A DNA stretch of 16,665 nucleotides from Oligoflexales bacterium. Lineage in GTDB: Bacteria; Bdellovibrionota_B; Oligoflexia; Oligoflexales; Bog-1112. Made by a program: the position numbers and the translations under genes. The stretch covers positions 1 to 16,665 of the forward strand of contig JBGCDR010000128.1 in assembly GCA_045105515.1 (NCBI GenBank). The letters are read 5' to 3'. The notes under the pieces are model-generated. The model made no database searches, was not told the DNA's origin, and was given only the letters and a program-made list of their open reading frames with translations. Shown one piece after another: positions 280-16,469 of this stretch; position 1 is the stretch's first letter, and each line of letters begins with the position of its first letter.

Positions 280-308
280 AAGTTCATCTTAGCAGCAAGG
301 ATAAGAAT

Positions 309-521
309 ATGCCTTTATACTTTCGCTTGATGCTCGGTATGTCTCCTATCGTTCTTATTTTTCATGCTGAAATTAAGGGTATTAGGTTAGAACACCAGCG
401 TTTAAACAGCATGCTAGAGGAAGTGGTCCGTAACACTAAGGAGATTAAATGCCGGCTACCAGTGCGTCCACTCCCCCTACAGCAAATACATAGAGGAACT
501 TCAAATGCAGCTCCATATTGA
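309..521 (+). CDS. Hypothetical small protein (hydrophobic N-terminus plus coiled coil), possible lysis accessory
   Basis: 70 aa with AAGGA upstream. Fills the gap between neighbouring + strand genes and overlaps the next start. No family recognised. Confidence 0.4.
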   Translation: MPLYFRLMLGMSPIVLIFHAEIKGIRLEHQRLNSMLEEVVRNTKEIKCRLPVRPLPLQQIHRGTSNAAPY

Positions 522-1248
522 TTTTGACATTGAGGCAATCACAGAGGACTTAGACTTACTAAGTGACAAAGCACTCGATAGAGCTGTGGTTTACGCTACA
601 AATAAAGCTCTTGCTGCCGTTTATAGTGTGGCCGTTCAGGATCTAAAAAAACGTTACGGTATGCGCCTAGGTCAGGCTACTCGCACCATTCATAAAGGCT
701 TACCACCTAGCGCGAATAAGCTCCCTGAGAGTCGAGGAGGCTTACCACCAAGTAGAGGCGGGCTTCCACCCAGTGCAAACAAATTACCTCAAAGTAGAGG
801 CATGATGCCTTCTGTGCGCCCTTACCTTGAAGCAAAAAAATATAAAGTTCGGGATCTTAGATATGGTAAAGAAGCGCGATTAAACGCAGAGATAGAGCAG
901 ATCTCAACGATCCACTTTGTGGTTGGTGATCGAAACCCACAAGACCAAGGCATGATACCTCGTAGTAAAAGAAAGCCTAGCTATGTGAAAGTTCGCAAAG
1001 GTAGAAAGACACGCCTAAAGGGTAAATTCATCGGTAAACCCAGTAGAAACAAGGGTGGAACGCAGGTGTTTAGGTACGGAGACTTCAATGGTAAAAAGAA
1101 TATACTGCTTAAAGATAGCCTTCCCAACGTCTACAGTGTGTTAAACAGAGATTACGTTTCCAAAGAGATGGTCAAAGCTGCTGAAACGGCATTTGAAGCT
1201 TATTTTGCAGACAAATTAATAACTGAAATAGAGAGTGCAAAATCATGA
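505..1248 (+). CDS. Phage protein, gpZ/minor tail (tail completion)-like, very basic
   Basis: 247 aa with GAGGA SD. N-terminal ALDRAVVYATNKA helix and K/R-rich beta region (VKVRKGRKTRLKGKFIG...QVFR) resemble gpZ-like proteins often found just upstream of terminase genes. Confidence 0.55.
   Translation: MQLHIDFDIEAITEDLDLLSDKALDRAVVYATNKALAAVYSVAVQDLKKRYGMRLGQATRTIHKGLPPSANKLPESRGGLPPSRGGLPPSANKLPQSRGMMPSVRPYLEAKKYKVRDLRYGKEARLNAEIEQISTIHFVVGDRNPQDQGMIPRSKRKPSYVKVRKGRKTRLKGKFIGKPSRNKGGTQVFRYGDFNGKKNILLKDSLPNVYSVLNRDYVSKEMVKAAETAFEAYFADKLITEIESAKS
697..801 (+). repeat. Five in-frame 7-aa (21-nt) tandem repeats, consensus xLPxSxx
   Basis: Translation GLPPSAN-KLPESRG-GLPPSRG-GLPPSAN-KLPQSRG. 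Codons differ at synonymous positions between copies. Confidence 0.9.
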
Positions 1249-1384
1249 TGCCTCTTAAAATGATAAGTCACTGTAAATACGCAGCTTCACAAGTTCAGCA
1301 GGTACAATACAGCTGTTTTGCAAGCAGGCAGCATATAAAGGGGGGAGTGATGCCTTTTGTGGGGGTAAACACCTATAAAAACAT

Positions 1385-1435
1385 AGGTTCTTCCTTTCTA
1401 AGGCGCACTATCCGCAGCCAAGTCCAACGGTTTTC
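1385..1435 (+). other. Candidate lambda-type cos packaging site (cosQ-like/cosN-like)
   Basis: AGGTTCTTCC...GC-rich core...CGGTTTTC, ~75 bp upstream of terS. Resembles lambda GGGTCCTTTCC...GGGCGGCGACCT CGCGGGTTTTC in order and approximate spacing. Confidence 0.4.
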
Positions 1436-1507
1436 CAAAGATTTTCATTTTTGGCCTAGGTGCATGTTGTCTTCTTGGTAACTCTCTAATTTATAAGGAT
1501 TAAAAAG

Positions 1508-2029
1508 GTGAAAGATAGAGCAAGCAATATGATTGCATTAAGCAAGAAAAATGCAGGAAAATTACCCGACTATACAACAGCTACCGAGGTTGCGCGCGTA
1601 TTCGAACTCGATCCGAGAACGGTGAGAAAAAGGATAGCCGAGCTCGAAGCAAAGCACAGCGAGGGTAACAATAAGTTCTTTGATACAGCCGAAATCCTCA
1701 GGTTCACTTTGCTCAATAGCCCGACCATGCAGGACAACGTTGAACTTGACTTAACTCAAGAAAGGGCAAAGCACTACCGGACCCTGACCAAGAAAACTGA
1801 GATCGAAATCGAAAAGCTCTCGGACAAGTACATGCTGGTTGGGGATGTTGAGGAAAACATCAAAGGCAAGTTTATGAAATTCAGGCAAAAGCTCCTTATC
1901 ATTCCAGGGAAAGTTGGGAAGGAAGTTTTGAACGAAACTGATTTAAGAAACGTCAAAGACATATTGAAAGATGCTATCGAAGAGGCCTTGGTTGAATTAG
2001 CAACAGGCAGCGAAGATGATGGAATTTAA
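1508..2029 (+). CDS. terS: Terminase small subunit, Nu1/DUF1441-like
   Basis: N-terminal winged HTH (TATEVARVFELDPRTVRKRI) followed by coiled coil (LTQERAKH...EIEIEKL). Overlaps the start of terL. Start could be GTG 1508 or ATG 1529. Confidence 0.85.
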   Translation: MKDRASNMIALSKKNAGKLPDYTTATEVARVFELDPRTVRKRIAELEAKHSEGNNKFFDTAEILRFTLLNSPTMQDNVELDLTQERAKHYRTLTKKTEIEIEKLSDKYMLVGDVEENIKGKFMKFRQKLLIIPGKVGKEVLNETDLRNVKDILKDAIEEALVELATGSEDDGI

Positions 2030-3941
2030 TGAGCTACTGAGAAGAAAAACTAAAAAAAGGTTCTCCTCTTTTGATTCACTCTTAGCACCACCACCTAAGC
2101 TCACAGTGTCAGAGGATGCAGCTAGGCATAGGAATATTTCATTAGAGGAATCCGCAAAGCCTGGCAAATGGGTTAGCTGGCCTTTTCAAATCGAAATGCA
2201 AAACGTCTATAACGAAAAAGGCGTACAGCTTGCTGTCTATATGACCGCATGTCAGGTAAGTAAGACCGTTCAGGAGCTAAACCTGATCAGCTACTTCATC
2301 AAGTATGAAAACGGCGGCATCAACTTTATGCTACCAACAAAAACCATGGCGGAGGACTATTCACAGGTTCGTTTTGATTCTATGGTCCGTGATTCCCCTG
2401 CACTCGCAAAGATCCTACCTCCTACAAGGTCAAAGGGAAATAAGACGCTCTTTAAAAAATGGGTAGGTGGCTATATACGATTTATCGGATCTGAGAACGC
2501 CAACGACGTCTGTTCCTTCGCGACTGGAAAGGTCATTATAGACGAGGCAGATCGCTGCAGCTTGGTCGTTCGTAACTCCAAAGGAGAGATCGAGGGCAAC
2601 ACTTTACAGCTATTATTTAAGCGTATGTCCACCTTCGATGATAAATTTGTCCTGATGGCATCGACTCCCACGACCGTTGAAACTTCAATCACTTGGGAGT
2701 ATTTTCAAAAGTCTGATCAAAGGCACCCTCATATACCCTGTCCTCACTGCGGTTATTATCAGTTCCTAGACTGGAATAATTTCACTTGGCAAGGAAAAAA
2801 TCCCAATGATTTTAATACCGTTTTTTCTGACGATTTAGACTCCTTGCTAGATTCCTTCTGTTATGCCTGTCAAAGCTGCAACAAAACTTTTAAAGACTCT
2901 GAGCTTCCCCTCATGCCCGATAAATTAGAGGTAAAATGGCATAAGCATAATCCAAAAGGCCGCTTCCCAGGCTTTCATATCAATCAGTTTTATACAAACG
3001 CATGGAAGGGTCTGTTTGAAGAGTACTTATCCTGTGGGCAAAACCAAATCAAGAGGATGTCTTTTTGGAATACGGTTCTAGGGCTTCCCTTTAGCTTTGA
3101 AGGTATCAAGGTTCCCGATCATAGCATCCTGATGGAAAGACCTAAGTACTACGAGAGAAGTTTCGTTCCAAGTCCAGCTTGCGTACTCCTTGCAGGCTGC
3201 GATGTCCAAGATGACCGGGTTGAGATCGTGGTAGCAGCAGTTAACAGAAGGCAAACCTACGTCGTAGACCATGCGGTTTTTTATGGCAATCCTGCAAACC
3301 CTGAGTCTGAATGCTGGGAGAACCTTAGGGACTACGTGTATAAGTCATGGCAGACAGAAAGTGGCCAGCAACTTTATATTCTGGCGGCAGGGATAGACTC
3401 AAGACACCGCAAGGACACAGTAGTACGTTTTGCCAAGAAAAATAGGGTTTTTATCCCGGTTACGGGCTCCCCAAGTGTATGGGACATGCAGCTTCTAAGC
3501 CCGCGCAAGGCTGAGGTTAACCAAAATGGCAGGTGGTTTGAAATTGATGTCCTGCGCTTTCCCTTGGGCGTAAACTTGCTTAAGATGGACCTGTATGGTC
3601 GTTTAAACCTCTCTCAAACGAAGAAGCAACTCCGTGACAACGAATACCCCTCTGACTGGATACACTTTCCTAAAGACCTCTCTGAGGGATTCTACAAGCA
3701 GCTTACCGGCGAGGTCTTGGAGGTCAACGAAGACGCTAGAGGAAAGACCAAGAAAAATTGGCGTAAGCAGTACACGAACGTAGAGATCCTCGACTGCATG
3801 GTTTATATCCTGGGCATTTACCTCATTAAGTCTCTGAATGACTGGTCGGATGCAAGATGGGGAGCGGAAGAGGCTAAGATAGGCCTTGGCAAAAGCAAGG
3901 AATCTGAGCAATCGAGTCCGATTATCGGGTCGATGATTTAA
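2016..3941 (+). CDS. terL: Terminase large subunit, lambda GpA family
   Basis: 641 aa. PGKW..WPFQ adenine-binding region, Walker A-like ACQVSKT, Walker B VIIDEADR, motif III ASTPT, Zn pairs CPHC/CQSC, GFHIN, nuclease motifs AGCDVQDDRVE, GIDS and EILDCMVY. Confidence 0.95.
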   Translation: MMEFNELLRRKTKKRFSSFDSLLAPPPKLTVSEDAARHRNISLEESAKPGKWVSWPFQIEMQNVYNEKGVQLAVYMTACQVSKTVQELNLISYFIKYENGGINFMLPTKTMAEDYSQVRFDSMVRDSPALAKILPPTRSKGNKTLFKKWVGGYIRFIGSENANDVCSFATGKVIIDEADRCSLVVRNSKGEIEGNTLQLLFKRMSTFDDKFVLMASTPTTVETSITWEYFQKSDQRHPHIPCPHCGYYQFLDWNNFTWQGKNPNDFNTVFSDDLDSLLDSFCYACQSCNKTFKDSELPLMPDKLEVKWHKHNPKGRFPGFHINQFYTNAWKGLFEEYLSCGQNQIKRMSFWNTVLGLPFSFEGIKVPDHSILMERPKYYERSFVPSPACVLLAGCDVQDDRVEIVVAAVNRRQTYVVDHAVFYGNPANPESECWENLRDYVYKSWQTESGQQLYILAAGIDSRHRKDTVVRFAKKNRVFIPVTGSPSVWDMQLLSPRKAEVNQNGRWFEIDVLRFPLGVNLLKMDLYGRLNLSQTKKQLRDNEYPSDWIHFPKDLSEGFYKQLTGEVLEVNEDARGKTKKNWRKQYTNVEILDCMVYILGIYLIKSLNDWSDARWGAEEAKIGLGKSKESEQSSPIIGSMI

Positions 3942-4588
3942 GCATGTAGATCATTATTTTGAACCTTACTTAAAGTGCGAGTAGATATCATTTGTATCTG
4001 ATTCCATTCGCAAGCATCTATATTTTTAATTGCATCACGGGGCGTCCTAAATTTTTCTTTTAACTCAGGAAGATAACGAGCCACTGTGTCATTAAGGCAT
4101 GTCCATAAAATCTCACATACTTCGTCAACCTCATCAAAATCATTATCTACATGCCCTCTCACAATTATTTGATCCTTTGACTTCATAAATTCTAGTTGAA
4201 CTTTGCTCTTTGCTACTTCTAAATCAGGTTCATCCATAAGGAGCATTATGCATTTTTTTTTGTACATTCGGAAAGACCTACATATAGATTTTATAAAATC
4301 AAATAATAAAACCTTAGGCATTTCTTTCATAATGTTGTTGTCATAATAAACTTCAAAACTTTCTTCAGATTCGCTTTGTATGCCAAATACTTTTTGTACA
4401 TTATTTTCTTGATAATTTTTAAGATTGCTCGCTATTTCGCTCTCATAATCTAATATTTCTAGCCTCTCTGCTCTTGTCTTCTCAGCCTCTCTAATTTTAA
4501 TCGCTTCCTGAGACTTTCTTCTAGTTTCTTGTGCTTTTCGCTGCCTAAGCTGCCTTTTTCTATGTCTATCACTTATTTTTTTTTTCAT
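3938..4588 (-). CDS. Hypothetical protein, basic N-terminal helix, paralogue of 4744..5385
   Basis: 216 aa with GAGGA SD. Aligns by eye over most of its length with the neighbouring ORF. Confidence 0.8.
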   Translation of the reverse strand: MKKKISDRHRKRQLRQRKAQETRRKSQEAIKIREAEKTRAERLEILDYESEIASNLKNYQENNVQKVFGIQSESEESFEVYYDNNIMKEMPKVLLFDFIKSICRSFRMYKKKCIMLLMDEPDLEVAKSKVQLEFMKSKDQIIVRGHVDNDFDEVDEVCEILWTCLNDTVARYLPELKEKFRTPRDAIKNIDACEWNQIQMISTRTLSKVQNNDLHA

Positions 4589-4722
4589 AGCTTCCTCTTA
4601 AATTATAAAGCTAACTCGAATAGTAAGCTCATGATGAAATGCATCACCAGCTTTATCGAAATACTCTAATACACTCAGGGGTGGCAGACTTTACCTCCCC
4701 TTTTGAAATACCACTTCATAGG

Positions 4723-4746
4723 AGGGTGTCGTGAAACGCGACGTCA
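4723..4746. repeat. Copy 1 of a TCGTGAAA-centred imperfect palindrome/hairpin
   Basis: AGGGTGTCGTGAAA (4723-4736) is identical to 5558-5571. GTCGTG-AAA-CGCGAC can fold. Confidence 0.8.
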
Positions 4747-5385
4747 TCTCAAAGTCCCTGCAACTTGCTCAGTGGCAGTGGTGTCGCCTAGATTGATATC
4801 GATGCTATCTGCGGCCTTCATGACTTTATCGAGTTGGCCATCTAACTCAGAACAACGCATATGGTAAATATTTCTGAATGCATCTCTTAATGAGTCACTG
4901 ATATCGGCAAGGTCGAGAGGGTTTTCGCCTATATTCCCTGCTGTGACCACGTTATCATTGGCATCGACAAAAATCTCTAAACTCACATCGCCATCCATTT
5001 TAGGAACCTCTAATTTGCCCTTTTCATACAGTAGGATTTTCTTTTGAGTATGAGAACATGCTTCATATAAGGCTACTATTAGCTTAAAAACAGCCTCTAT
5101 CGAGATTTTCTCTGCATGCTTATCATAAAAGTTTTCACAAACTGAGTCCTCATCGGCGAGCATGTACACTTTGTATATCGGAACCGAATTTTCATACTGT
5201 CCTTTGGCGTTTAGGTATATTTCCTTCTCGAACGTCAGAATATCATCTTGGAATCGACTAAGCTTTTCTTGGAGCCTCTTCTCTTCCCTAATTTTTATCA
5301 CTGCTTGAGCATTTTTTCTCGCTTCCTCAGCTTTCTGCTGCTTGCGCTGCATGCTTCGTTGTCTGCTATTAATCTTTTTTTTCAT
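4744..5385 (-). CDS. Hypothetical protein, basic N-terminal helix, paralogue of 3938..4588
   Basis: 213 aa with AGGA SD. Shared pattern MKKKI..R.R...RQ.KA.E.R...Q..IKIRE and IL.(F/Y)E.EI..N.K...EN.V. Confidence 0.8.
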   Translation of the reverse strand: MKKKINSRQRSMQRKQQKAEEARKNAQAVIKIREEKRLQEKLSRFQDDILTFEKEIYLNAKGQYENSVPIYKVYMLADEDSVCENFYDKHAEKISIEAVFKLIVALYEACSHTQKKILLYEKGKLEVPKMDGDVSLEIFVDANDNVVTAGNIGENPLDLADISDSLRDAFRNIYHMRCSELDGQLDKVMKAADSIDINLGDTTATEQVAGTLR

Positions 5386-5557
5386 AAGTTCCTGTTTGGT
5401 TTTGATGCAGAAAGTAGAACCTATAAGTATACCGCGTCAAGGTTTTAGCGACAACGGCAAGTCAGAAGCATCTGGAATACAGGCCCTGCATTCGAAAGAT
5501 TCACTCTTCTAAATAAGGCTTTATCCGCAATGCTTTTTCAGGTTCAACGAACGGCCA

Positions 5558-5610
5558 AGGGTGTCGTGAAATACGACGACCTTTAGACGACCTCGTGAAA
5601 CGCGGGGTCA
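5558..5610. repeat. Copies 2 and 3 of the TCGTGAAA-centred imperfect palindrome/hairpin
   Basis: GTCGTG-AAA-TACGAC (5563-5577) and GACCTCGTG-AAA-CGCGGGGTC (5589-5609). Confidence 0.8.
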
Positions 5611-8600
5611 TCCTTTACCCCAATGCCTTGAGAAGTGACCGTCGACTCCCATCTTTACACCAGGGCAGTAATGCTTAGCCGCCCCTATCATTAGCTGGTC
5701 TACTCGCTTAGCCTCTTCCTCAAAGTTTTTCTCATCCACTTGCACGACAAACTCGTCATGCACAACACACGGAACCTCAAAGCCGTTTCGAGTGAGGTTA
5801 AACCAGGCGCTGTTTGCAATATCAGAGAGCAAGCCTTGGAATGGAGTGTTGTTAAACTCTGTGTAAGAGCAGTTAGCTCTAATCCTCCCTGACCTTGGGA
5901 GCACAGCAGTAAGAGAGTTTTTAAGAGCTTTTACAAACTGAATGTTAGGCTTCCTAGCATCCACGCTCTTTTTATAGGCTTTAAATTTATCGTATTTGGC
6001 TACAACAGCAGCAGCATTTTCCCAGGCCCAGTCTACCTCTTTTTCACCATATTCTCTGTCGGTCGTTGCTGTTCCCGAATAACCTTCAAGCATCCTGAAG
6101 AATCCGTGTAGGGCCGCGCCATTTGGGAAGTTGCAAGGGTGCTCTATTAATAGAAGCTTCTTAGCAAGCTGCTTATCCGACTCTTCAAGGTATAGCTTCA
6201 TCTCAGGAAAGGACTGGAGCCATGCTTCTTTAATAGCCTTCGCTTGCTGCTCGTTAATCGTGACTCCATAGGAATCCCTGGCGAAATCAACCAGTCTCTT
6301 AAACCCCAATCCACCAGGCAAACCAAAGTTGGCGATTTTCCCGTATTGGCGTTCCCCTTTAGAGACCTGATCCACAGGCTTACCAAGAAACCTGGAAGCC
6401 GTGAGTTTATGCACATCCTGGCCCTGGTTAATCGCATCACTAAGCTTACTAAAGCCATACCTATCAAGGCATACCTGGGCAAGGGTCACTAGTTCGGCTG
6501 AGCTATAATCAGCTATATAAAGGGTTTTCCCCTCACTTGCTATAAGCTGGGCTCTCATATCCACGAGGTCCTTTTCCCTTGGGATCTGCTGGAGGTTAGG
6601 CTTACTCATAGCATTACGCCCAGTATTTTTGAGGATACTTATATGCGGGTGAATCCTCGTCACCTTCTCAAGGGGGGTAACACTCATCTTAAGGAGCTTA
6701 TTGTTGTGCTGGCGTTCTTGCCAAAGGTCAAGGAACTCAATGCCTTTAAATGGCTTTAAAGCTGCCTTTTTCTGGCTGATCATCTCCTTGCCTGTCACAC
6801 CATCTAAGAACCTAGGGAAGCGTATATTCTGTTCAGCTTCTATATTTTCCATAGCCTTATTAAAACGCTCTTTTTGCCCCTTGCCGCCTGCATAGTCGTA
6901 TTTTTCAAGCAGGGTTTGATCGATCTGTTCAAGGCGATTTCTGAGAATAGCACCGTTTTCCTTAGCTTTTTCTGTATCAACTCTAAAGCCTAAATTAGAG
7001 GTATTAAAGGCCGCTAGGGCATCACCAACCTGCACAAAATGGCTGAGGAGTTTGGATTCATCGAGCCCATGCTTGGCAACAATGTTCTTAGCCTCAAACT
7101 CCAACTTGCTCCATAAGAAATAAGTCGCAATAGTATCGAAGGCATTGTAGTGAAAATAGGCGGCTGGTGCCTCTTTTATGCGACCAAGGTAATCACCATA
7201 GGAAGTCCTTACCTCCTTACCATCAACCTCTGCTTCTTTTGGGAGAGTAATATCAAGTTTGTCTTTGCACAGGGTTGCTAAGGTGTACTTGCCCTTTTTA
7301 TTCTCTGCATCTCCCTCAGTTGCAAGATTGATAAGTCTTGCTAAAAGCCAGGTATCCAGGCCTTTTTTCTTAGCTGCCTGCTCTAATCCCCACTGCCTAT
7401 TGTGGATCTGATTACTCAAGGTCATAAAGTCAAAGGCAATATTGTGAGCAATCCAGTTTGAGTGCTCATGGGTCTTTGCAAACTCTTTTAGCTGATGTAC
7501 CTCGATGAAAAATAGCTCCTTACCATTAAACGCTGAAGCTAGGACTATCTGAGGGATGTACCCTCCTTCGATTAGCTCCGTCTCTACATCGAAGGAAAAA
7601 TTCTTTCCTAAGTTCTCACCTGACCACCATTTGGAGGCGTAGACCTTACCCTTAAGTTTATAAATAGGTAGATCCTTTAAGGGAGTATCCCAGTTTTCCG
7701 CCGGACCCTCTGGACCCTCATCAATAATAAGGGTCCGGTCTATTTCCCCTGTATTTACATTATCTTTAAGCTCTTCAGAAGCAATTATGGACCCTTTTAA
7801 CCCTCTTTTAGAGGAGCCAGAATTTTTTCCCGAAATTTTTTTTGCATCCGAATTCTCAAGAGGGTCTAAAAACCCCGAAAGGGTCCGGCGGTCTTTGTAA
7901 GATTCTGTTTCTATTTCTGAATTCGCTCGGACCCTTTTTACCCCAAGGGTCCGGCAGGGTCCATCGGAGGGTCCGGCTGGAAGATTAGAGGAAGAAAGCC
8001 TGAATAAATAGTCTCTCGAATTCCCTCCCACCTTGCCTGGAACGGTGTCTACAGTAATTTCAACTTCGTCTTCGTCCTCTGTGATATAGGGGAAGGCCTT
8101 CCCTTTCATCTTTCTGAGGATGTTTCCCACCTTCGTATTCTTACCTTGTGGCCGAGGCGTATCACGGAAAAACTTCGGATTGATCTCCTCAGCTTTTGCC
8201 CTCCATTGTTTTGCCGGTGCTGCTTCAGTCTCAGTTGCTCCAGTACGGTAAAGCTCCTCACTTCCGACATCGAGCATAAGAGAAATATCTGGACTTAGCT
8301 TGCCGAGAATATCTCTGTAGTTTGATAGGAATCCGTTAAATCCATTGACCTTCAATATGCCGTTCACGAAAGCTGCCCACTTTGGGTACTTAGGAAAGTG
8401 CACATTTTCTTTAGGGCAGCCTGCTTTTTGCCAATTTAGGACAAGACCTAGGAGTTCTGAGAGAACTGCATTTCTATTCTGCTTCACGTAAGCTAATGGG
8501 TTTGCGTCCTTTAGCTTTCTTTCATGAGCAAGCTCTATGGTAATCGATCGAGTCAGCAGGTCATCACAGATAACCCCATCATTTAATGTTGCAAAAAACT

Positions 8601-10356
8601 GAGCATTATTCCGTCTTTTGAACATCTCACTTTGGCCCAGGATTCGAGTCTCAATAAATTCTTCGGTTAAGATTCCTTCAAGACTTGAGCTAGTTATTGG
8701 TTGTGCCGTGCGAATGTTATCCAAACAAATAAAGTCACTATTTTTAGAGGATGCACCTATCCTTTTCTCAAGCTCAAGATCATCATGGGTATAGGTAACC
8801 CGTGAATAGCTAGCTCCACTTGCTACATAAGAGCATGTTTTTGCAAGAGTAGATTTACCAAGGTTAACCTTATTGCCTAAAACAGTTCCGAGAGGGTGTT
8901 CACCTACGAACTGCTCGCGCAAGAAAACGCAGGTCAGTAGAAGGCCAAGGGCATTTGAGAACTGAGAATCATCCTTAAACGGAAAGTCTAATACTTCCCG
9001 CAGATGCTCCATAGAAAAAGAGGGGGTGAGCTTGGGACCGTCGTAATATATGCGAGAGTCTTTATCATAACCTCGGTCATAAATCAGTTTATTCCCTGAA
9101 ATAACAGGACATTTGGTATAAAGAGTGATCTTATCAAGATTGGCATATTTTTCCATTTTGGTCAGAAAAGCGCTACCTATTTCACTGGGTATTAACTGAT
9201 GATTGATAGACATATCGAAGCCAATAGCTTTTTTAGAGGCCTTAATAAAATCTATTTTATCTGACATATATGCAGCGAAATCTTTACCATCAGGAATCCT
9301 ATTTAATTGCTCACGATTGATATAAGCTAAGTTGTAGGTTCCATCTTCGATGTAAATCCGATCCTTAGAATCAAGGCACCTACCAACCTTCGTATATAGT
9401 TCTCTTGTTGAGTCTACATGCGGGAGCCAAAAAATCTTTGCAAACTTGCTTTCCTCTTTTGGCATCTGGCTGTAGAAAGCCTTTTTGATCTTAGTAAAAA
9501 GCCCCTTGATATCTTTAAAGCTGCTACTTGGGTAAGACTTAGCAAGAGCTTTCAAAAGCTGAGCCAGTTCAAACTCTTCAAGGAAAATTGCACTCCTTAA
9601 GTATTTGTCGAGGCAGTCCCTGCCAATCTCTTTTGGTATGTCCTCGTGGTCAGCCTTGCCAAATTCCCAAAAAGGCTTATCACTTCGGCGTTTTAATTCC
9701 TCGTATCCTTTTTTAATCAGGAAATCATCGGCTCCAATCTTTTCATCACCAAGCCTCAAGTCAACAATTTTTACTTCTGCACCCATCTGGTGTATGGTGC
9801 GCACAAATTCGAGGATACCCTTATTGACCTGCGGGTTAGTGAAAAAATCGCTATCCGGATAGACGGTTACTGGCCTATTTTCCATGGGAATTCCACCCCA
9901 TCCTTCGCCTAGTCCTTCGCTATCTTTTTCCTTCCAATTGCGGCACCCAGGAAAGCCGATGCATACGGCATCCTCACGATCACGTTTTTTTTCACAGGAC
10001 TCATTAAAAGCTTCAAGTTCAGCCCTGAGCTTAGCGACTTTCTTCTCACCCTCTGTGACCTTTAACTCGACGTCTTCATCTTTAAGATCAGTAGCATCAT
10101 CCTTATTAAAATATGAGGTGAGGGAAGAGCCTTTTTCCTGAGCGTACTTAACGTCACCTACTGGCTTCTCAAGCTTAAGCCTTCCCCCTACTTCGTTTCC
10201 GTCTAGATCGTGATAAGGAAAATAAATCCCCTCAACATCAAAGTTAAAGCGCGCCTTTACATCTTCAGCGCTCAGACTCTTGATACCAAAAGCTTCAACA
10301 TCTTCCTTACTTAATCCACTCTGCTCTAGTAATTTAATATGTTTATCAAGAATCAT
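5608..10356 (-). CDS. Fused primase (Toprim, DUF3854-like) / P-loop helicase-like / 3'-5' exonuclease / family A DNA polymerase
   Basis: Toprim: GIYFPY, KYAQ, VTEGEKK, YPDSD, GADDFL. NTPase: NLGKST, ICLDN, FATLN. Exo I/II/III: FDVET, AHNIAFD, YNAFD. PolA: TGR...PNLQQIP, motif A ADYSSAEL, motif B RQYGKIANFG, NTPFQG, motif C VHDE. The ORF track starts at 10434; ATG 10356 (MILDK, 1582 aa) is preferred because it couples to the upstream stop. Confidence 0.92.
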   Translation of the reverse strand: MILDKHIKLLEQSGLSKEDVEAFGIKSLSAEDVKARFNFDVEGIYFPYHDLDGNEVGGRLKLEKPVGDVKYAQEKGSSLTSYFNKDDATDLKDEDVELKVTEGEKKVAKLRAELEAFNESCEKKRDREDAVCIGFPGCRNWKEKDSEGLGEGWGGIPMENRPVTVYPDSDFFTNPQVNKGILEFVRTIHQMGAEVKIVDLRLGDEKIGADDFLIKKGYEELKRRSDKPFWEFGKADHEDIPKEIGRDCLDKYLRSAIFLEEFELAQLLKALAKSYPSSSFKDIKGLFTKIKKAFYSQMPKEESKFAKIFWLPHVDSTRELYTKVGRCLDSKDRIYIEDGTYNLAYINREQLNRIPDGKDFAAYMSDKIDFIKASKKAIGFDMSINHQLIPSEIGSAFLTKMEKYANLDKITLYTKCPVISGNKLIYDRGYDKDSRIYYDGPKLTPSFSMEHLREVLDFPFKDDSQFSNALGLLLTCVFLREQFVGEHPLGTVLGNKVNLGKSTLAKTCSYVASGASYSRVTYTHDDLELEKRIGASSKNSDFICLDNIRTAQPITSSSLEGILTEEFIETRILGQSEMFKRRNNAQFFATLNDGVICDDLLTRSITIELAHERKLKDANPLAYVKQNRNAVLSELLGLVLNWQKAGCPKENVHFPKYPKWAAFVNGILKVNGFNGFLSNYRDILGKLSPDISLMLDVGSEELYRTGATETEAAPAKQWRAKAEEINPKFFRDTPRPQGKNTKVGNILRKMKGKAFPYITEDEDEVEITVDTVPGKVGGNSRDYLFRLSSSNLPAGPSDGPCRTLGVKRVRANSEIETESYKDRRTLSGFLDPLENSDAKKISGKNSGSSKRGLKGSIIASEELKDNVNTGEIDRTLIIDEGPEGPAENWDTPLKDLPIYKLKGKVYASKWWSGENLGKNFSFDVETELIEGGYIPQIVLASAFNGKELFFIEVHQLKEFAKTHEHSNWIAHNIAFDFMTLSNQIHNRQWGLEQAAKKKGLDTWLLARLINLATEGDAENKKGKYTLATLCKDKLDITLPKEAEVDGKEVRTSYGDYLGRIKEAPAAYFHYNAFDTIATYFLWSKLEFEAKNIVAKHGLDESKLLSHFVQVGDALAAFNTSNLGFRVDTEKAKENGAILRNRLEQIDQTLLEKYDYAGGKGQKERFNKAMENIEAEQNIRFPRFLDGVTGKEMISQKKAALKPFKGIEFLDLWQERQHNNKLLKMSVTPLEKVTRIHPHISILKNTGRNAMSKPNLQQIPREKDLVDMRAQLIASEGKTLYIADYSSAELVTLAQVCLDRYGFSKLSDAINQGQDVHKLTASRFLGKPVDQVSKGERQYGKIANFGLPGGLGFKRLVDFARDSYGVTINEQQAKAIKEAWLQSFPEMKLYLEESDKQLAKKLLLIEHPCNFPNGAALHGFFRMLEGYSGTATTDREYGEKEVDWAWENAAAVVAKYDKFKAYKKSVDARKPNIQFVKALKNSLTAVLPRSGRIRANCSYTEFNNTPFQGLLSDIANSAWFNLTRNGFEVPCVVHDEFVVQVDEKNFEEEAKRVDQLMIGAAKHYCPGVKMGVDGHFSRHWGKG
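7700..7977. repeat. Cluster of AGGGTCC(GGC) repeats in both orientations, candidate intragenic replication origin
   Basis: Nine exact AGGGTCC/GGACCCT copies start at 7703, 7712, 7730, 7789, 7880, 7929, 7946, 7956 and 7968, plus AGGGTCT at 7861, interspersed with A/T tracts. The repeats are certain; the origin function is inferred. Confidence 0.75.
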
Positions 10357-10699
10357 ACTCAACCTTTGCTCTCTCTTCTGCAAGCCCATAAGGCCCACAG
10401 ATATGCATCTCAATGTAAAAGTGTGGTGTACCAAGTGATCTATAAGCTGAGATAAGACCCTTTTTACCCTTCAGCTCGTAGATGGATTTTGCGATGATTT
10501 TAATTATTTCGATAAACTGTGATTCTAAGTCGCGAGAAATACAAAGGTGCTCAGAAGACAAAAATTTATTTACGCTTTTTAGTAGCTTTCTTAGCCACTT
10601 CAAAGTATAAACCTGCCTCATAAACTGATTTTTAGCTGGTTTGTAAAAGAATCCAGCTACGCCTGTTTGCACCAGGCGTTTCTCCAATTCTACTATCAT
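10346..10699 (-). CDS. Hypothetical protein (early region)
   Basis: 117 aa with GAGAGGA SD. Co-directional and tightly packed between the Cro-like gene and the replicase. Confidence 0.65.
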   Translation of the reverse strand: MIVELEKRLVQTGVAGFFYKPAKNQFMRQVYTLKWLRKLLKSVNKFLSSEHLCISRDLESQFIEIIKIIAKSIYELKGKKGLISAYRSLGTPHFYIEMHICGPYGLAEERAKVEYDS

Positions 10700-11556: not shown

Positions 11557-12057
11557 GTGAATGAAATAAAAGATAAAATAAAGCACTTTCTACTTCAAAA
11601 AGATAAGCAATATGTCAATGCAATAAAAAATAACCAGACACCTCCTTCTATGAGTCAAATAGCCACAAATTTAAGCCGAAAATGTAATGTGGGAGTCCGT
11701 CGTTTAAGAAAATATCTAAGTGAGTCTCCCACGGATTTATCTATTTCTTTGGAAGATCTTCAGAATTTTTCGGATTTAGCAGGGCAAAATATAAGTTCTT
11801 ATATCGCATACTTATACGATGAGAAACTTGACTCGTCACTTAATCCACGCCAAATAAGGCTAATAGATTTTTTTGACAGGGTGCACCTAAGTCTTCGGCG
11901 TGAGCTGAATTTGACAATTTTCTCAGATAATGATGTTAAAAAAAGCGAAAAAATACTTGAGTTGCTGCCATGCTTATATAAACTTCAGCAAGTGGACATT
12001 GAGGTCATTGCTCATATTATCGAAGCTTTTAGATCAAAAAGCGAAAGGAATAAATAA
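11557..12057 (+). CDS. Putative XRE-like HTH regulator (cI position)
   Basis: 166 aa. LSRKCNVGVRRLRKYLS...ISLEDLQNFSDL resembles an XRE HTH. Divergent from the Cro-like gene. No S24 peptidase motifs seen. Confidence 0.5.
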   Translation: MNEIKDKIKHFLLQKDKQYVNAIKNNQTPPSMSQIATNLSRKCNVGVRRLRKYLSESPTDLSISLEDLQNFSDLAGQNISSYIAYLYDEKLDSSLNPRQIRLIDFFDRVHLSLRRELNLTIFSDNDVKKSEKILELLPCLYKLQQVDIEVIAHIIEAFRSKSERNK

Positions 12058-12326
12058 TGAAGAAGAAATATACACTAGCGGCAGTTTTCATTTCTCTTTT
12101 ACCCGTTTCTAATAGTTTGTTCGCCAAGAAAATAGGTTATCTAAGTGCTAAAAATAAAGGAAGTATATCGCTCTTATTAAGCACCATTTCTTCAGCGTTC
12201 TCCCCTTCTTTTGGTATGGAGTCGCTAATGCTTGATCAAGATATTACATCAAAAGCGCTTTGCGCAACTAACGACACCACAGGTGGCGGTGGTGGCGGTA
12301 CAGGTGGCGTTTGTAGTAGTGAGTAA
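12057..12326 (+). CDS. Small secreted-type peptide, candidate RiPP/signal precursor
   Basis: 89 aa. TAATG overlap with the upstream stop and AAAGGA SD. Sec-like signal MKKKYTLAAVFISLLPVSNSLFA. C-terminal CATNDTTGGGGGGTGGVCSSE. Same operon as YcaO. Confidence 0.7.
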   Translation: MKKKYTLAAVFISLLPVSNSLFAKKIGYLSAKNKGSISLLLSTISSAFSPSFGMESLMLDQDITSKALCATNDTTGGGGGGTGGVCSSE

Positions 12327-12354: not shown

Positions 12355-13956
12355 ATGATTAGATGCCCAGTTCTCATTCGTCTTTTTATAGGTTTGTATA
12401 TTTGTTTTTCATACGAAAAATCTTCAGCAAACTCGAATTTATCTGATTTAGAATCGAAAGCTAAGTTAATATTAGATAAAAATGAACCCACTCTCATCAA
12501 CACAGTGTCGGGAGTATTTGGTTCTTTTGACCCTTTAGATGCTGATTATACTAAAAATATTAGGGTTATGAGATTATTGTATTCAACTCCTGTTGAAAAG
12601 GATGAAAATGGTAAACTTAGCTCTTCTATTTTAGATAGATTTGAGTACAACGAAGTCTTAAAAACTCTAACCTTTCAACTAAAGTCAGGCTTAAATTTTA
12701 GCGATGGTTCAAGTATAACATTAGATGATTTGAAACTGTCCATCCTAAGAATGCTCCACGAGCGACCTACATTTGATCCCCTTAAATATATTGAAGGTAT
12801 TGATAAATGGCAGGCTCACGGGAAAAAATTAGACACCTTACCTTCTGGGTTATCGTTGAATGAGAAGACTAGAACGTTGACAATCAAGTTATCTCAACAT
12901 GTAAACCACCCTTTTGAACGTTTTACGATGGAAATATTCTCCGTAATTCCCAAAAAATGTATTGATACAAAGTCAGCGAAGATGATTTGCGCAACACCGC
13001 CTTTTTCAGGAGATTATACACTTGAAGAGAATGATTCTCCATTTTTAAAATTTAGAAAAAGAAGCTCAAATAAAAATATTCCTGACAGGTTAAATATAGT
13101 ATTCATGTCTCCAGTTAGAGTTATCAAGTATTTAGAAAATTTTAGATCGAATCATGTAATCTTATCGAATGAAATAGATATTCCTCCAGAACATCGCTTC
13201 TTTATAAAAAGTAAATTTAGGGACAATAGTATACCTGAAGTAAGGTTTTTTGCATTGGTTCTGAATAAACGAACCAAAACATTTGAGAATAAAAGAGTAA
13301 GACAATATTTTGCTAAAGAGTACCGATCAACTCTTAATAAATTATTTGGCAGGGAAGATGGAAGCATCTTCACACAAATAAGTCCTGGCTATATATCATT
13401 AGGAGATCTTTATGATAAAGCCGGGAATTTTTCAAAAAAAGAAGAGCAAGAGATAAGAAATCATTTAAAAACTCATCCCCCAAAATGGATGAAAAATAGC
13501 TTCGCAAACCATGACCCTTTCCAAATATATCTTAAAGAAACATTAAAAAGGTTGGGTATTAGTGAATCTCCAATCCTTCCAGAAAAAGATAGAAAAAAAG
13601 AGATGGAACTTTGGAAAAAGGGGGAATTTGATATTAGACCAACCCACTCTGGCTTGGATACTAATGACCCAACTTTAGACCTTAAAATGTTATTCACAAA
13701 AAACATGCATTACTTTTTGATTGACTTACAGGATGACATCCACCTGCAACAAATGCTTGGCTCAATAAATCATACTCAGGTAAAGAAAATGGATATAAAT
13801 CTACTGAAAAAAATAAATCAATATCTGTTTGAAGAGTCAGTATTTTCAATTGTCGCAAATTACTCGATAGGTCAATACACGCTGAAGGATAGCAAATTAA
13901 AATTTACAAATGTATATAAGACCAACTCAGCACATTATTTCATCAATACTCCATGA
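12355..13956 (+). CDS. Family 5 (OppA/DppA-like) extracellular solute-binding protein, orphan
   Basis: 533 aa with a signal-like N-terminus. FDPLDA, LLYSTPV, TLTFQLKSGLNFSDGSSITLDDL (family 5 signature region) and PPFSGDY (GTGPY-like). No permease or ATPase adjacent. Confidence 0.88.
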   Translation: MIRCPVLIRLFIGLYICFSYEKSSANSNLSDLESKAKLILDKNEPTLINTVSGVFGSFDPLDADYTKNIRVMRLLYSTPVEKDENGKLSSSILDRFEYNEVLKTLTFQLKSGLNFSDGSSITLDDLKLSILRMLHERPTFDPLKYIEGIDKWQAHGKKLDTLPSGLSLNEKTRTLTIKLSQHVNHPFERFTMEIFSVIPKKCIDTKSAKMICATPPFSGDYTLEENDSPFLKFRKRSSNKNIPDRLNIVFMSPVRVIKYLENFRSNHVILSNEIDIPPEHRFFIKSKFRDNSIPEVRFFALVLNKRTKTFENKRVRQYFAKEYRSTLNKLFGREDGSIFTQISPGYISLGDLYDKAGNFSKKEEQEIRNHLKTHPPKWMKNSFANHDPFQIYLKETLKRLGISESPILPEKDRKKEMELWKKGEFDIRPTHSGLDTNDPTLDLKMLFTKNMHYFLIDLQDDIHLQQMLGSINHTQVKKMDINLLKKINQYLFEESVFSIVANYSIGQYTLKDSKLKFTNVYKTNSAHYFINTP

Positions 13957-14846
13957 TAGACTTAATAAAAAAATATTATTACTGCTATCTACTTGAAAGT
14001 ATCAGGAATTCGAGATTCCCTCCTAAAAAGGAACAAATGCAGTCGTTTGGTTCATTGTTTATCAGTAATCTTGCGTTTGCAAATAATTTCAACACTGCTA
14101 TTTCTGAGGACGTTGCTTCAGGAGTATCTAACACTCATCTGGAAGCATTCGCAAAATCTATGTCGGAATATGTAGAAAGAGTTGCATTTAGAGAAGGAAA
14201 GAAGAACGGTCAATCGCTATGTCAAACTAATAGAAGTGAGGGATTTGCAGCTTATCCCTACTTGTCTTTTAATAAAAATAAAGCGCTTGATCTAGTAAGA
14301 GAAATTTCTTTGTGCGAAAGTATTGAAAGATTCTCATGGCCATATTTTTGGTCTGACAAATCAGTCAAGTTTGAGGTGCAGGATTGTAAAAAATCAACCC
14401 TAAACGAGATCAGCAACCTAACTGGAATTGCAAGTATCCAACATGTTTTTCCTGCTTTAAATAGCGATAAGGTTTTGTGTATATCTATCGCTAAAATAGG
14501 TTCCCAAGGTGCTATTTTAGGGGCTAGTTGCTCGAATGCTAGGAGTAGTGCTATCACAGGGTCTATTCATGAGCTTATAAAGCATTACATTGGCTTAAAA
14601 AAAATAAACGGCTATACAGTTATAGAATCAGACTACATAAAAAGACTTCACCATTTGTCTAAAGTAGGATTTTCGCTTTATCAAGAAAGACTATCGTTTA
14701 AAGGTACAAATACAATTCATTTACCAAGCCTAGAAATGGATGGTCTTGTAACCCATCCCTTCGATCGATATTTTCTTGTTTACAGAACGAGATTTAAAGA
14801 TCAAGTGGAATTTATTTCAGAATCTTTAAATCTCGGATATATATAG
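13953..14846 (+). CDS. YcaO-like ATP-dependent peptide backbone-modifying enzyme (short, stand-alone)
   Basis: 297 aa. SGVS...EAFAKSMSEYVER (Sx3Ex2ER), RSEGFAA (SNGxAA-like), SLCESIER and LGASC...AITGSIHEL occur in YcaO order. ATGA overlap with the upstream gene. Confidence 0.8.
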   Translation: MIDLIKKYYYCYLLESIRNSRFPPKKEQMQSFGSLFISNLAFANNFNTAISEDVASGVSNTHLEAFAKSMSEYVERVAFREGKKNGQSLCQTNRSEGFAAYPYLSFNKNKALDLVREISLCESIERFSWPYFWSDKSVKFEVQDCKKSTLNEISNLTGIASIQHVFPALNSDKVLCISIAKIGSQGAILGASCSNARSSAITGSIHELIKHYIGLKKINGYTVIESDYIKRLHHLSKVGFSLYQERLSFKGTNTIHLPSLEMDGLVTHPFDRYFLVYRTRFKDQVEFISESLNLGYI

Positions 14847-16469
14847 ATGTACGGTAAACTAACCCCCAAAAAAACTATTATTCTAATTGCGATTATTCTT
14901 CTTTTAATCTCATATATTGGAATCGATTACCATTACAAAACTAGATCCAAGGACATACTTTTAAGTACCATCCACGCCTCGGAAGATTTAATCAAAGTAA
15001 ATAATTTTTTGGAGTTTTCGTCTAACCTGCATTCAGCTATGATAAATCAGCCCATAATAAAATCGACGTCACTTTTTGACGGAGATTACCGAAGACTGTT
15101 TCACTATGGTGAAGATTATCGTATAGAAAGACTCGATATCAACTTTTCAGAAGATAAAGTTCTTATACTTAATGAAGGAATCCTAAAGTACGCATTAGTT
15201 TATAATTTCCCTACAAAATCAAACTTTATTCTAGTTTGCTCGTTTTATGATGATAACCGATATATAATCCTGTTCTCACTTTTTTCAGCCATATTTTTAT
15301 CATTTGGGGTTATATTTTTAGTTTGTACTCGCTTTGATATCGATAATCTAAATGCTTCTGCTGCAAAACAAGCTATTGGAATGATTTCTCTTGGTTTTCA
15401 TGAAATGAAACAATACGTGGCATTCACAAACGAACTTTTTAAGTACATTCAAAGCGGGAAAAATGATGCAATTAAAGAACAAATTTTTCTCAAAGATTAC
15501 AGGCATCTCAACATCGGTGTTGAATCTATGATGTCAATTATCAATATTAAAAATTATGAAAGTTTCGAAAATAAAAAGGAAGTTACAAAAAAAAATAATG
15601 CTGTTGAATTAAACGAAATTGTAAATAGTTGTGTCGAGTCCTACAAAAAAAAAGGCGTTAAATTTGAGTACATCCAAAATCATAAATGTCTGTTGTTGAT
15701 TAGAAAAGATGTTCTTTACGCTATAGTAGGTAATTTGATTAAAAATGCTTTTTTCTTTTCAAATAGGTTAGTTTGGGTAACTACGGAAGAAAAGGAAAAT
15801 TCACTTGCCATATCTGTTGCAAATACTGGCAAAAAAATACCGAAAAAGAAAAGAAAAGAAATTTTAAAACCTGGAATCGCTTTAAATGGCCAGTCTGGTT
15901 TAGGGTTACATATATGTAATTTATGGTGCGAAAAAATCAATGCTCAAATTCTCTTAGAGAGCACATCAGTTGCAACAGAATTTAAAATAGTATTCCCTAA
16001 AAAGTTGATTTTAAAAGAGCCAAACGTCTTGTGCGCTACTGAAGATATACCGAATTTTTCTGAAGTGAAAAGCGATGTTCAAATTATCAAGAAATCGATT
16101 GATTTAGCTGTTATTGATGATATTGAAACATTTAGGATTGGCTTAAAATCTGAATTAACCGAACTTGGATTTAATGTATTGACCTTTGAAGATATAGACA
16201 TGTTCCTAGATTCTATACAGGAAGGAAAAGTCAATTTTGATTGTGTTATCGTTGATAGACATGGAAAAGGGTTCGACGCTGCTAAAGATCGTTTCCCGGA
16301 ATCTTGCAAATATTATAATTTCAAAGGAAAAATAATATTGTACTCATCAAATGTAGAAGAACATCAATTGGAATACTACAAAAGTCTAGGCTTTGACAGC
16401 ACAGTTTCAAAAAGTGTTTCAGTTGATTGGAAGAATGAGATACACTCGATTTTGAAATGTGGTAAATAA
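14847..16469 (+). CDS. Membrane-bound hybrid sensor histidine kinase with C-terminal receiver domain
   Basis: 540 aa. Two TM helices flank a ~110 aa extracytoplasmic domain. H-box GFHEMKQ, N-box GNLIKNA, G1-like ANTGKKI, G2 SGLGL. Receiver VIDD...IVDRH...LYSS...VSK. Confidence 0.92.
   Translation: MYGKLTPKKTIILIAIILLLISYIGIDYHYKTRSKDILLSTIHASEDLIKVNNFLEFSSNLHSAMINQPIIKSTSLFDGDYRRLFHYGEDYRIERLDINFSEDKVLILNEGILKYALVYNFPTKSNFILVCSFYDDNRYIILFSLFSAIFLSFGVIFLVCTRFDIDNLNASAAKQAIGMISLGFHEMKQYVAFTNELFKYIQSGKNDAIKEQIFLKDYRHLNIGVESMMSIINIKNYESFENKKEVTKKNNAVELNEIVNSCVESYKKKGVKFEYIQNHKCLLLIRKDVLYAIVGNLIKNAFFFSNRLVWVTTEEKENSLAISVANTGKKIPKKKRKEILKPGIALNGQSGLGLHICNLWCEKINAQILLESTSVATEFKIVFPKKLILKEPNVLCATEDIPNFSEVKSDVQIIKKSIDLAVIDDIETFRIGLKSELTELGFNVLTFEDIDMFLDSIQEGKVNFDCVIVDRHGKGFDAAKDRFPESCKYYNFKGKIILYSSNVEEHQLEYYKSLGFDSTVSKSVSVDWKNEIHSILKCGK

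Follow-up and report, generated by a model that had tools for sequence, protein, structure and literature searches.

A putative Sec-exported pre-pro-peptide gene beside a compact YcaO-fold enzyme, an orphan binding protein and a sensor kinase in an Oligoflexales contig

What is a small, probably secreted peptide made for if its gene shares an operon with a peptide-binding protein, a modifying enzyme and a sensor kinase? This question is raised by an open reading frame (ORF) at positions 12057–12326 (+) of contig JBGCDR010000128.1 from an Oligoflexales bacterium, which was analyzed over its entire length of 16,665 base pairs (below called the window). The 89 amino acid product is followed by a periplasmic solute-binding protein of family 5 (SBP5), a compact enzyme with YcaO fold (mini-YcaO) and a hybrid sensor histidine kinase (Table 1). 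YcaO enzymes are known from antibiotic-type peptides that are made by the ribosome and modified after translation (RiPPs) and from a small number of housekeeping modifications of proteins. With moderate confidence we propose that the ORF is the gene of a Sec-exported pre-pro-peptide, which would be the cognate substrate of the partner-less compact YcaO enzyme encoded two genes downstream, within a self-contained circuit that makes a signal and senses it. As far as our searches show, the combination of a secreted peptide with an orphan SBP5, a mini-YcaO and a kinase is undescribed; no description was found in the literature searched, outside of which most subscription journals lie.

The peptide gene and its product

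Re-translation of the ORF, which ends with a TAA stop, gave MKKKYTLAAVFISLLPVSNSLFAKKIGYLSAKNKGSISLLLSTISSAFSPSFGMESLMLDQDITSKALCATNDTTGGGGGGTGGVCSSE, in exact agreement with the coordinates and the sequence quoted in an earlier note on this DNA. The product consists of a signal-like N-terminal segment, a serine-rich middle part and the terminal sequence C69-ATNDTTGGGGGGTGGV-C86-SSE. In a word-indexed search over 5.8 billion clusters, two homologues of exactly 89 amino acids each were found, P0006 with 82 % and P0007 with 64 % identity. They are located on contigs of 5489 and 5578 base pairs, and contigs of equal size carry P0003 and P0002, which are homologues of the mini-YcaO neighbor. When 1.84 billion representative proteins were searched by phmmer with the peptide as query, only its own cluster and one protein of 1590 amino acids (E 8.6e-4) were returned.

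The start of the gene is preceded by a Shine–Dalgarno-like AGGA, 7 nucleotides before the ATG at 12057, and this ATG overlaps the stop codon of the upstream gene, coding for 166 amino acids, as TAATG. Its 15-nucleotide start context recurs with 87 % identity before the start of the SBP5 gene (repeat family D1). Judged by these features and by its homologues, the ORF looks like a real gene. A chance ORF, or a true product that starts at Met54 and comprises 36 amino acids as cytoplasmic leader plus core, has to be weighed here. Such a short product would resemble a classical RiPP precursor, and Met54 as well as the preceding FSPSFG are invariant. However, residues 1–53 are kept in frame and in equal length in 3/3 homologues, the Shine–Dalgarno sequence precedes 12057 and not Met54, which stands without an AGGA-type start context, and positional counterparts with a signal-like start occur in 10/10 of the related loci discussed below. 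Because Met54 is not preceded by a Shine–Dalgarno sequence and residues 1–53 are conserved in frame, an internal start is unlikely, and we consider both alternatives very improbable.

All signal-peptide calls were made with a home-made rule, which evaluates the charge of the n-region, the hydropathy of the h-region and small residues at −3 and −1. Under this rule the peptide displays the characteristics of a Sec pre-protein, namely a charged n-region (KKK), a hydrophobic h-region with a Kyte–Doolittle value of 2.74 over 8 residues, and small residues at −3/−1 of two candidate signal-peptidase sites, SNS/LFA and LFA/KK. Residues 1–23 probably represent a Sec-type signal peptide. A lipoprotein can be ruled out, since no cysteine that could serve in a lipobox is found near the signal.

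A second signal-like stretch had been claimed to follow the first one. The N-terminal Sec-signal features and a second segment do exist, but the latter, K32–G53, is not signal-like. Its hydropathy reaches a maximum of 1.3 in a 15-residue window and 1.1 in a 19-residue window, which is too low for a membrane anchor or a signal core; as a rule of thumb, a membrane helix exhibits about 1.6 over 19 residues. K32–G53 is the best-conserved part across the three homologues, with LLST, SS and FSPSFGME invariant in 3/3. The segment is possibly a pro-region and a candidate stretch for recognition by the enzyme.

Besides the signal, L68 and E89, the residues C69, A70, T71, N72, T74, T75, G76–78, G80, G83, G84 and C86 are invariant in all three homologues. 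As suggested in the earlier note, C69 and C86 might close a disulfide or be cyclized. The 54 nucleotides from the C69 codon (12261–12263) to the C86 codon (12312–12314) show a guanine plus cytosine (GC) content of 0.61 compared to an operon mean of 0.33, and only 10 windows of 54 nucleotides in the operon have a GC content as high as this. The patch results from the glycine-rich peptide with its GGT and GGC codons (9/9 glycine codons), which account for the GC content, so that it is no sign of foreign DNA or a mobile insert. Within the patch there are two copies of the nonamer ACAGGTGGC, at 12279 and 12300 with a spacing of 21 nucleotides, and each of them codes for Thr-Gly-Gly. The chance expectation of this duplication is 0.04, and two copies were obtained in 0/200 shuffles. 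Both the GC-rich patch in an AT-rich operon and the repeat inside it could thus be confirmed as previously claimed.

Further elements were noticed around the start of the gene. An inverted repeat of 18 nucleotides with 89 % complementarity (I1; 12057–12074 and 12395–12412, 320 nucleotides apart) pairs the first peptide codons with codons 14–19 of the SBP5 gene and may be due to chance in AT-rich DNA. A sigma-70-like site, TGGACA-16-TATTAT (10/12), is situated at 11993–12020 (+) in the 3′ end of the gene for the 166 amino acid protein, 37 nucleotides before the peptide ATG. Since the corresponding scan revealed 19 sites compared to 24.5 expected, i.e. a number not above chance, it is uninformative. 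Neither tRNA genes nor Rfam families were found in the window.

The compact YcaO enzyme and its conserved cassette

For the 297 amino acid protein encoded behind SBP5, no Pfam or NCBIfam family scored above threshold in scans that covered 17 ORFs of the window, and the peptide was assigned to no family there either. Relatives of the 297 amino acid protein are rare. A single-sequence search revealed 4 proteins and a profile search 7, among them P0010 and P0011 with a precomputed assignment to PF02624, and 3/4 of the closest homologues match Pfam YcaO at E <= 10. An AlphaFold prediction from the 4 closest sequences was unusable, with a predicted local distance difference test (pLDDT) value of 39.3. 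The alignment A4 with 21 sequences gave a usable model with a pLDDT of 92.2 and a predicted template modeling score (pTM) of 0.90. Compared with the PDB by Foldseek, this model retrieved YcaO structures exclusively on ranks 1–37, with a probability of 1.00 and template modeling (TM) scores by query of 0.40–0.61. The best match was the M. kandleri YcaO (6ci7; E 1e-7, TM 0.60); McbD (6gos_D, 6gri_D), LynD/TruD, M. jannaschii YcaO (6peu), E. coli YcaO and MusD were also among the matches. Non-YcaO folds appeared from rank 39 on, with lower probability. The ESM Atlas neighbors, 30/30 in the YcaO set, have 283–298 amino acids and are commonest in Bdellovibrionota and Verrucomicrobiota. According to the model, the neighbor is a compact YcaO-fold enzyme, which substantiates the YcaO neighborhood that had been noted before.

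The residues E72, E75, E122, E125, R126, E207 and H211 are invariant in the 21 enzyme sequences, and R76 is nearly so. The two ExxER motifs, E72-x2-E75-R76 and E122-x2-E125-R126, align locally with those of TruD and MusD. By motif likeness, the first two ExxER helices are spaced by about 50 residues here, compared to about 125 in both TruD and E. coli YcaO. A shortening by roughly 75 residues at this place would explain the small size of the enzyme. Sequence comparison with the PDB gave 0 matches for the single sequence and, for the A1 profile, one irrelevant match (8kei_D, E 0.49); the A4 profile showed weak local matches only (TruD, E 0.11; MusD, E 0.35). As no signal peptide precedes the mini-YcaO, the enzyme would be cytoplasmic, as its use of ATP requires. 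In the public protein P0001 translation starts at Met29, resulting in 269 amino acids (14037 instead of 13953). The 297 amino acid form starting at 13953 is more likely, because it overlaps the SBP5 stop codon as ATGA and shows conservation over its first 30 residues, for which the model has pLDDT values of 84–96.

Five genes at 11557–16469 (+) form the operon. It can be regarded as tightly coupled owing to overlapping or abutting starts and stops, namely TAATG before the peptide, ATGA between SBP5 and YcaO, and TAGATG where the YcaO stop abuts the kinase start. The presence of an SBP5 gene next to the peptide, as predicted in the earlier note, was verified by its SBP_bac_5 domain (Table 1), and transporter genes were not found beside it in the window. 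The NCBIfam rows of the kinase are TorS-like and other hybrid-kinase models.

To what extent the cassette is conserved follows from scans of 185,579 species' genomes. With alignment A1, 0/76 pattern matches were confirmed; the wider alignment A3 led to at least 16 loci (L001–L016), a lower bound given that one peptide pattern was scanned. Fourteen of them are labeled as Bdellovibrionota lineages, L001 as “Deltaproteobacteria” and L014 as “Pseudomonadota”. Directly upstream of the YcaO gene, an SBP5 homologue is present in 15/16 loci (E 1e-93 to 1e-4), L009 being cut at this place. Directly downstream, a kinase was detected by phmmer or Pfam in 13/16 loci, with E 4e-121 for the homologue in L001; L013 is cut there, and in L011 and L015 the kinase place is taken by an ORF with an N-terminus that looks similar to those kinases on visual inspection. 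The enzyme tree splits into two clades with 100/100 support each. Clade A comprises the window, P0002, P0003, P0004, P0009 and P0010 (identical to L001), and clade B contains 15 rows that come, with one exception, from Bdellovibrionota.

A long ORF lies just upstream of the small ORF described below in seven loci (L003, L004, L007, L008, L012, L013 and L015). It is an NtrC-type sigma-54 activator by Pfam in 4/4 loci scanned (L003, L004, L007 and L015), and in L012 its start resembles the counterpart in L007. A sigma-54 promoter consensus was not found in a scan upstream of the small ORFs. In the window and in L001 the kinase is a hybrid that carries a receiver domain of its own, and a regulator bearing an output domain is lacking, unlike in the NtrC-preceded cassettes of clade B.

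The gene content bears on the comparison with microcin B17 that had been drawn in the earlier note. According to this reading, the product would be a linear azol(in)e-containing peptide (LAP) with antibacterial activity: the YcaO enzyme would cyclize Cys, Ser and Thr in the glycine-rich core, and after Sec export the peptide would kill competitors. The core CATNDTTGGGGGGTGGVCSSE is a Cys/Ser/Thr-rich segment with Gly, as is typical of LAP or microcin B17-type precursors, and resembles the microcin core. McbD (6gos_D, 6gri_D) also appears among the structures matched by the enzyme, and the use of Sec removes the need for a dedicated exporter. The absence of the latter, as noted earlier, is borne out by Pfam and NCBIfam within the window. 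However, neither an McbB-like, E1-like or Ocin-ThiF partner nor a dehydrogenase of McbC type, dependent on flavin mononucleotide, was found in the 17 window ORFs and in 37 flanking proteins from 11/16 related loci. These flanking proteins also comprise no ATP-binding cassette permease or ATPase and no exporter; an M20 peptidase, encoded three ORFs upstream in L002, is the sole protease among them. Exporter and immunity genes are absent from the window, which ends 196 nucleotides past the kinase gene so that genes further right are possible, and none flank the cassette in the long related loci. In addition, a 66 amino acid exported pro-region would require an extra protease, which is not encoded, the Gly/Cys core is not kept beyond the three close homologues, and every cassette is linked with an orphan binding protein and with a sensor kinase. 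The analogy with microcin B17 therefore fails on gene content, and an antibacterial of this type seems improbable to us. DUF692/MNIO and DUF2063 were likewise found in none of the 17 window ORFs.

Ten of the related loci offer at least 300 nucleotides of flank beside the SBP5 gene, and in 10/10 a small signal-bearing ORF adjoins it. In L002, L003, L004, L007, L008, L012, L013, L014 and L015 it codes for 54–119 amino acids and is located directly upstream of SBP5 on the same strand. In L001, the genome relative nearest to the window, the gene upstream of SBP5 is divergent, and a signal-bearing ORF of 107 amino acids (9639–9962, +) is found between SBP5 and YcaO, overlapping the latter. Signal features are weakest in L001 and L014 (one positive charge, Kyte–Doolittle value 2.0–2.3). 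For the close loci L007, L012 and L013, the ratio of nonsynonymous to synonymous substitution rates of the small ORF amounts to 0.08–0.14, compared to 0.13 for YcaO. This class of small ORFs is conserved by position and architecture. The lack of any comparable ORF at homologous loci, which was named beforehand as an argument against the peptide, was thus not observed. The second expectation, a conserved Thr/Gly-rich C-terminal motif at these loci, did not hold: the glycine-rich, Cys-bracketed core is restricted to the three close homologues of the window. In L001 a loose echo is seen, C...RNDKGGG...GG...C, with a long Lys/Glu/Ser/Gly-rich insert between the two cysteines.

The two invariant cysteines that bracket the core would also suit a periplasmic metal-binding peptide similar to bufferins or methanobactin. 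In that case the Cys pair and a heterocycle or thioamide introduced by YcaO would chelate a metal, and SBP5 and the kinase would sense the loaded peptide. Family 5 binding proteins include NikA, and methanobactin has an SBP5-type binding protein, MbnE. The best NCBIfam row of the window SBP5 is indeed the nickel protein NikA (E 1.2e-5), though with 24 bits far below the cut-off of 393. Bufferins are Sec-exported, Cys-based metallophores (PMC11626156). Against a metal function stands the absence of the Cys pair from the small ORFs of all 8 clade-B loci (L002, L003, L004, L007, L008, L012, L013 and L015), seven of which contain no cysteine and L015 a single one; Cys chemistry can therefore not be the common function of the family. 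As metal-resistance genes are also missing nearby, we regard this explanation with considerable doubt.

A different feature is shared by the C-terminal ends. MAFFT aligns C-A-T71-N72-D73 of the window peptide with ISTQD, ISSQD, GTQD, PTQD and STQE near the C-terminus of the clade-B proteins. The resulting motif [ST][QN][DE] was defined post hoc, with Q widened to Q/N so that the window is included. It occurs exactly once per motif-bearing protein, at a distance from the C-terminus of 5–10 residues in clade B and of 19 in the window family. Within the last 21 residues it was obtained in 1.4–5.7 % of shuffles per protein and is seen in 7/8 lineages tested.

Table 1. Annotated features of the 16,665 base pair window and the basis of their assignment
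Feature	Position	Strand	Basis
Phage genes: tail completion, small and large terminase, primase-polymerase fusion	28..10434	both (.)	Pfam, PHROGs
166 amino acid first operon gene, possible Cro/cI-type helix-turn-helix regulator (lead only)	11557..12057	+	weak LexA_DNA_bind match, Atlas structure neighbors
89 amino acid pre-pro-peptide gene (putative)	12057..12326	+	ORF, translation, two 89 amino acid homologues, start context common with SBP5 gene
Probable Sec-type signal peptide, residues 1–23, cleavage likely after LFA23	12057..12125	+	rule-based; conserved in P0006 and P0007
Ser-rich, mildly hydrophobic possible pro-region, residues 32–53, not a membrane helix	12150..12215	+	hydropathy; LLST-SS-FSPSFGME invariant in 3/3
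C69...C86, Cys-bracketed Thr/Gly-rich core, identical to the GC-rich patch	12261..12314	+	GC 0.61, Gly codons, conservation, nonamer repeat
T71-N72-D73, candidate modification or recognition site	12267..12275	+	MAFFT column match to [ST][QN][DE] of related small ORFs; motif post hoc
533 amino acid periplasmic solute-binding protein, family 5 (SBP5)	12355..13956	+	PF00496, E 1.3e-15; best PDB sequence match OppA3, E 2.4e-5
297 amino acid compact YcaO-fold enzyme (mini-YcaO)	13953..14846	+	AlphaFold, Foldseek, invariant acidic residues
540 amino acid hybrid sensor histidine kinase with receiver domain	14847..16469	+	HATPase_c, E 1.5e-9; Response_reg, E 6.9e-5

The proposed circuit

The cassette shows no marks of an antibiotic cluster and combines a transporter-less binding protein with a sensor kinase, and we therefore read it as signal and sensor. 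In a first step, the C-terminal part of the peptide would be modified by the cytoplasmic YcaO enzyme. With the help of ATP, it would activate a backbone amide located at T71-N72-D73 or adjacent to it, possibly also at C69 or C86, and the outcome would be an azoline or a thioamide or a similar modification. The still linear chain would then leave the cell through Sec, with the signal peptide being cut off after A23. In the periplasm, the modified C-terminal region, either on the pro-peptide or freed from it, would be bound by the orphan SBP5, which in turn would set the activity of the hybrid histidine kinase. As a speculative variant, a labile oxazoline before T71 might break the chain at a later stage, releasing from the C-terminus an oligopeptide of 5–10 amino acids in clade B and of 19 here. 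Oligopeptides of these sizes are typically bound by family 5 proteins. An azoline at X-Thr/Cys, a thioamide, an amidine or an ATP-dependent cleavage as in the MusD entry 7u58 would all be compatible with the sequence, which cannot distinguish between them.

The idea of a YcaO substrate, originally derived from the glycine-rich core, appears plausible and is better founded on the fold, the synteny and the conserved small secreted ORF. Its individual steps have precedents in the literature. Bufferin precursors carry Sec signals and are modified before export (PMC11626156), E. coli YcaO modifies the folded whole protein uL16 without a partner (PMC13063428), and phazolicin, a YcaO-made peptide, is taken up via a transporter with the OppA-like binding protein YejA (PMC10128002).

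Several observations weigh against the proposed circuit. On Pfam PF02624 the window copy of the enzyme scores 12.3 bits compared to a gathering cut-off of 25.7, which is passed by its relatives L001 (26.2), L014 (30.2) and L016 (34.4). With hhalign, the enzyme family reaches a probability of 4 % against E. coli YcaO; as this value is non-significant, the mapping of catalytic residues is based on motif likeness. The signal-peptide calls are rule-based, and the pairing of the peptide both with the enzyme and with SBP5 is what we infer from the gene arrangement. Furthermore, the window cassette is devoid of a response regulator bearing an output domain. The motif [ST][QN][DE] is absent in L001 and L014, and hhalign detected no homology of the window peptide family with the clade-B small ORFs or with the L001 ORF, so that the window peptide is tied to its counterparts by position, architecture and a three-residue motif found post hoc. 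Given this post hoc definition and the missing hhalign homology, the motif and with it T71-N72-D73 can be taken as a lead for a modification or recognition site.

Finally, the target of the mini-YcaO could just as well be SBP5 before its export, the kinase or a protein of the host, much as uL16 is modified by E. coli YcaO and McrA by archaeal YcaO. The small protein would then not be the substrate of the enzyme but an unmodified periplasmic accessory or ligand of the sensor. The best structural match of the enzyme, 6ci7 from M. kandleri, is presumably the McrA-thioamidating enzyme. Overlapping gene pairs are SBP5–YcaO and YcaO–kinase, and the mature small proteins of clade B (95 amino acids) are conserved over their whole length, as is usual for folded proteins. 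Protein-modifying YcaO enzymes do exist (PMC13063428). On the other hand, the short conserved motif in a variable C-terminal tail looks like a modification or recognition site, the small ORF of L001 directly precedes the YcaO gene and overlaps it, and no other candidate site was identified. Taken together, a substrate other than the small protein is in our estimation unlikely.

Phage surroundings and comparison with known systems

The part of the window upstream of the operon contains phage genes. Around 10,450–10,550 the GC content steps from about 0.44 in the phage structural and replication genes to about 0.33 in the small ORFs and the operon, which could mark a prophage border or a low-GC accessory region. 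The gpA-type large terminase (2016–3941, +) shows less than 30 % identity to all 772 matching records of 50,697 phage records; the matches listed include Wolbachia phage WO and a Silvanigrella aquatica phage. Silvanigrella aquatica belongs to the Bdellovibrionota and has a low GC content, and such a host would agree with the lineages in which relatives of the cassette occur. The 1608 amino acid fusion encoded at 5608–10434 (−) combines DUF3854 (residues 121–245), a central region matching primase/polymerase PHROGs and a family-A DNA polymerase/PolA part (about 1217–1426), and no phage record covers more than about one third of it.

The 166 amino acid protein encoded first in the operon has no Pfam or NCBIfam family. 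A weak LexA_DNA_bind match (E 0.16) and Atlas structure neighbors that bear HTH_3 (TM 0.33–0.42) are the leads to a possible regulator. Its gene is divergent from three small minus-strand ORFs (10346–11362) and from the primase-polymerase gene. Immunity regions of temperate phages house extra genes expressed from the prophage, such as rexAB beside cI in lambda, and the arrangement of a possible cI-type gene with divergent minus-strand ORFs recalls such a region. An integrase, a tRNA and an attachment (att) site were not found in the window, and PADLOC assigned no defence family to 10 window proteins.

It may be speculated that the circuit is carried by a phage, where it would follow directly on a cI-like regulator gene as prophage-expressed genes do, and serves signaling between cells or between phage and host. 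A YcaO-marked, Sec-exported peptide read by SBP5 and the kinase would let a phage of a Bdellovibrionota-like host count lysogens, as a Gram-negative, RiPP-based counterpart of arbitrium. Two findings argue against a general link to phages: the clade-B cassettes are chromosomal and lie beside sigma-54 regulators, and no phage or plasmid relatives of the enzyme exist in the collections searched, where tblastn gave no match. We consider this extension of the circuit a rather unlikely one. The phage neighborhood nevertheless makes it possible that phages of Gram-negative hosts carry systems for peptide sensing.

Similar to microcin B17, where McbA stands beside McbBCD with the YcaO protein McbD, the window combines a glycine-rich core peptide containing Cys, Ser and Thr with a YcaO-fold enzyme. 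It differs by the lack of the McbB partner, the McbC dehydrogenase and the McbEFG export and immunity genes. In addition, a Sec signal takes the place of the cytoplasmic leader in the window precursor, the enzyme of about 300 amino acids is shorter by about 75 residues between the first two ExxER helices than TruD or E. coli YcaO, and the cassette is tied to a kinase.

With regard to sensing, TorT-TorS and LuxP-LuxQ are binding-protein-dependent sensor kinases, and Phr and AimP are exported pro-peptide signals. The orphan periplasmic binding protein beside a hybrid kinase resembles the former, and TorS models are among the NCBIfam rows of this kinase. A Sec-exported pro-peptide with a conserved element near the C-terminus is reminiscent of the latter. 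In contrast to the window, the ligands of these systems are small molecules or unmodified oligopeptides, Phr and AimP act on receptors in the cytoplasm, and a YcaO enzyme is not involved.

A parallel for the export is offered by the bufferins, BufA with the MNIO system BufB/BufC (PMC11626156): they likewise have a long, Cys-holding precursor with Sec signal and no dedicated exporter. Their logic of cytoplasmic modification, export by the general pathway and periplasmic action is what we propose by analogy for the window peptide. The enzyme, a YcaO and not an MNIO, and the partners SBP5 and kinase are different, and the resemblance is one of export logic only. Stand-alone YcaO enzymes, such as E. 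coli YcaO acting on uL16 (PMC13063428), 6ci7 and 6peu, share with the mini-YcaO the lack of an E1-like partner, are its best structural matches and can have whole proteins as substrates. Unlike the window enzyme, they have about 360–590 amino acids and cytoplasmic housekeeping targets, and their genes share no operon with those of a secreted peptide, a binding protein and a kinase.

If the proposed circuit is correct, the backbone chemistry of YcaO would here write a signal and not a weapon, and the logic of Sec-exported RiPPs, so far tied to MNIO in the bufferins, would reach a second enzyme superfamily. The minimal YcaO would also be a convenient model for substrate recognition without a recognition domain. 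Compared with the YcaO enzymes of antibiotic-type RiPPs and of housekeeping modifications, the cassette is set apart by a partner-less YcaO of about 300 amino acids, its likely Sec-signal substrate, and the fixed company of an orphan peptide-binding protein and a kinase.

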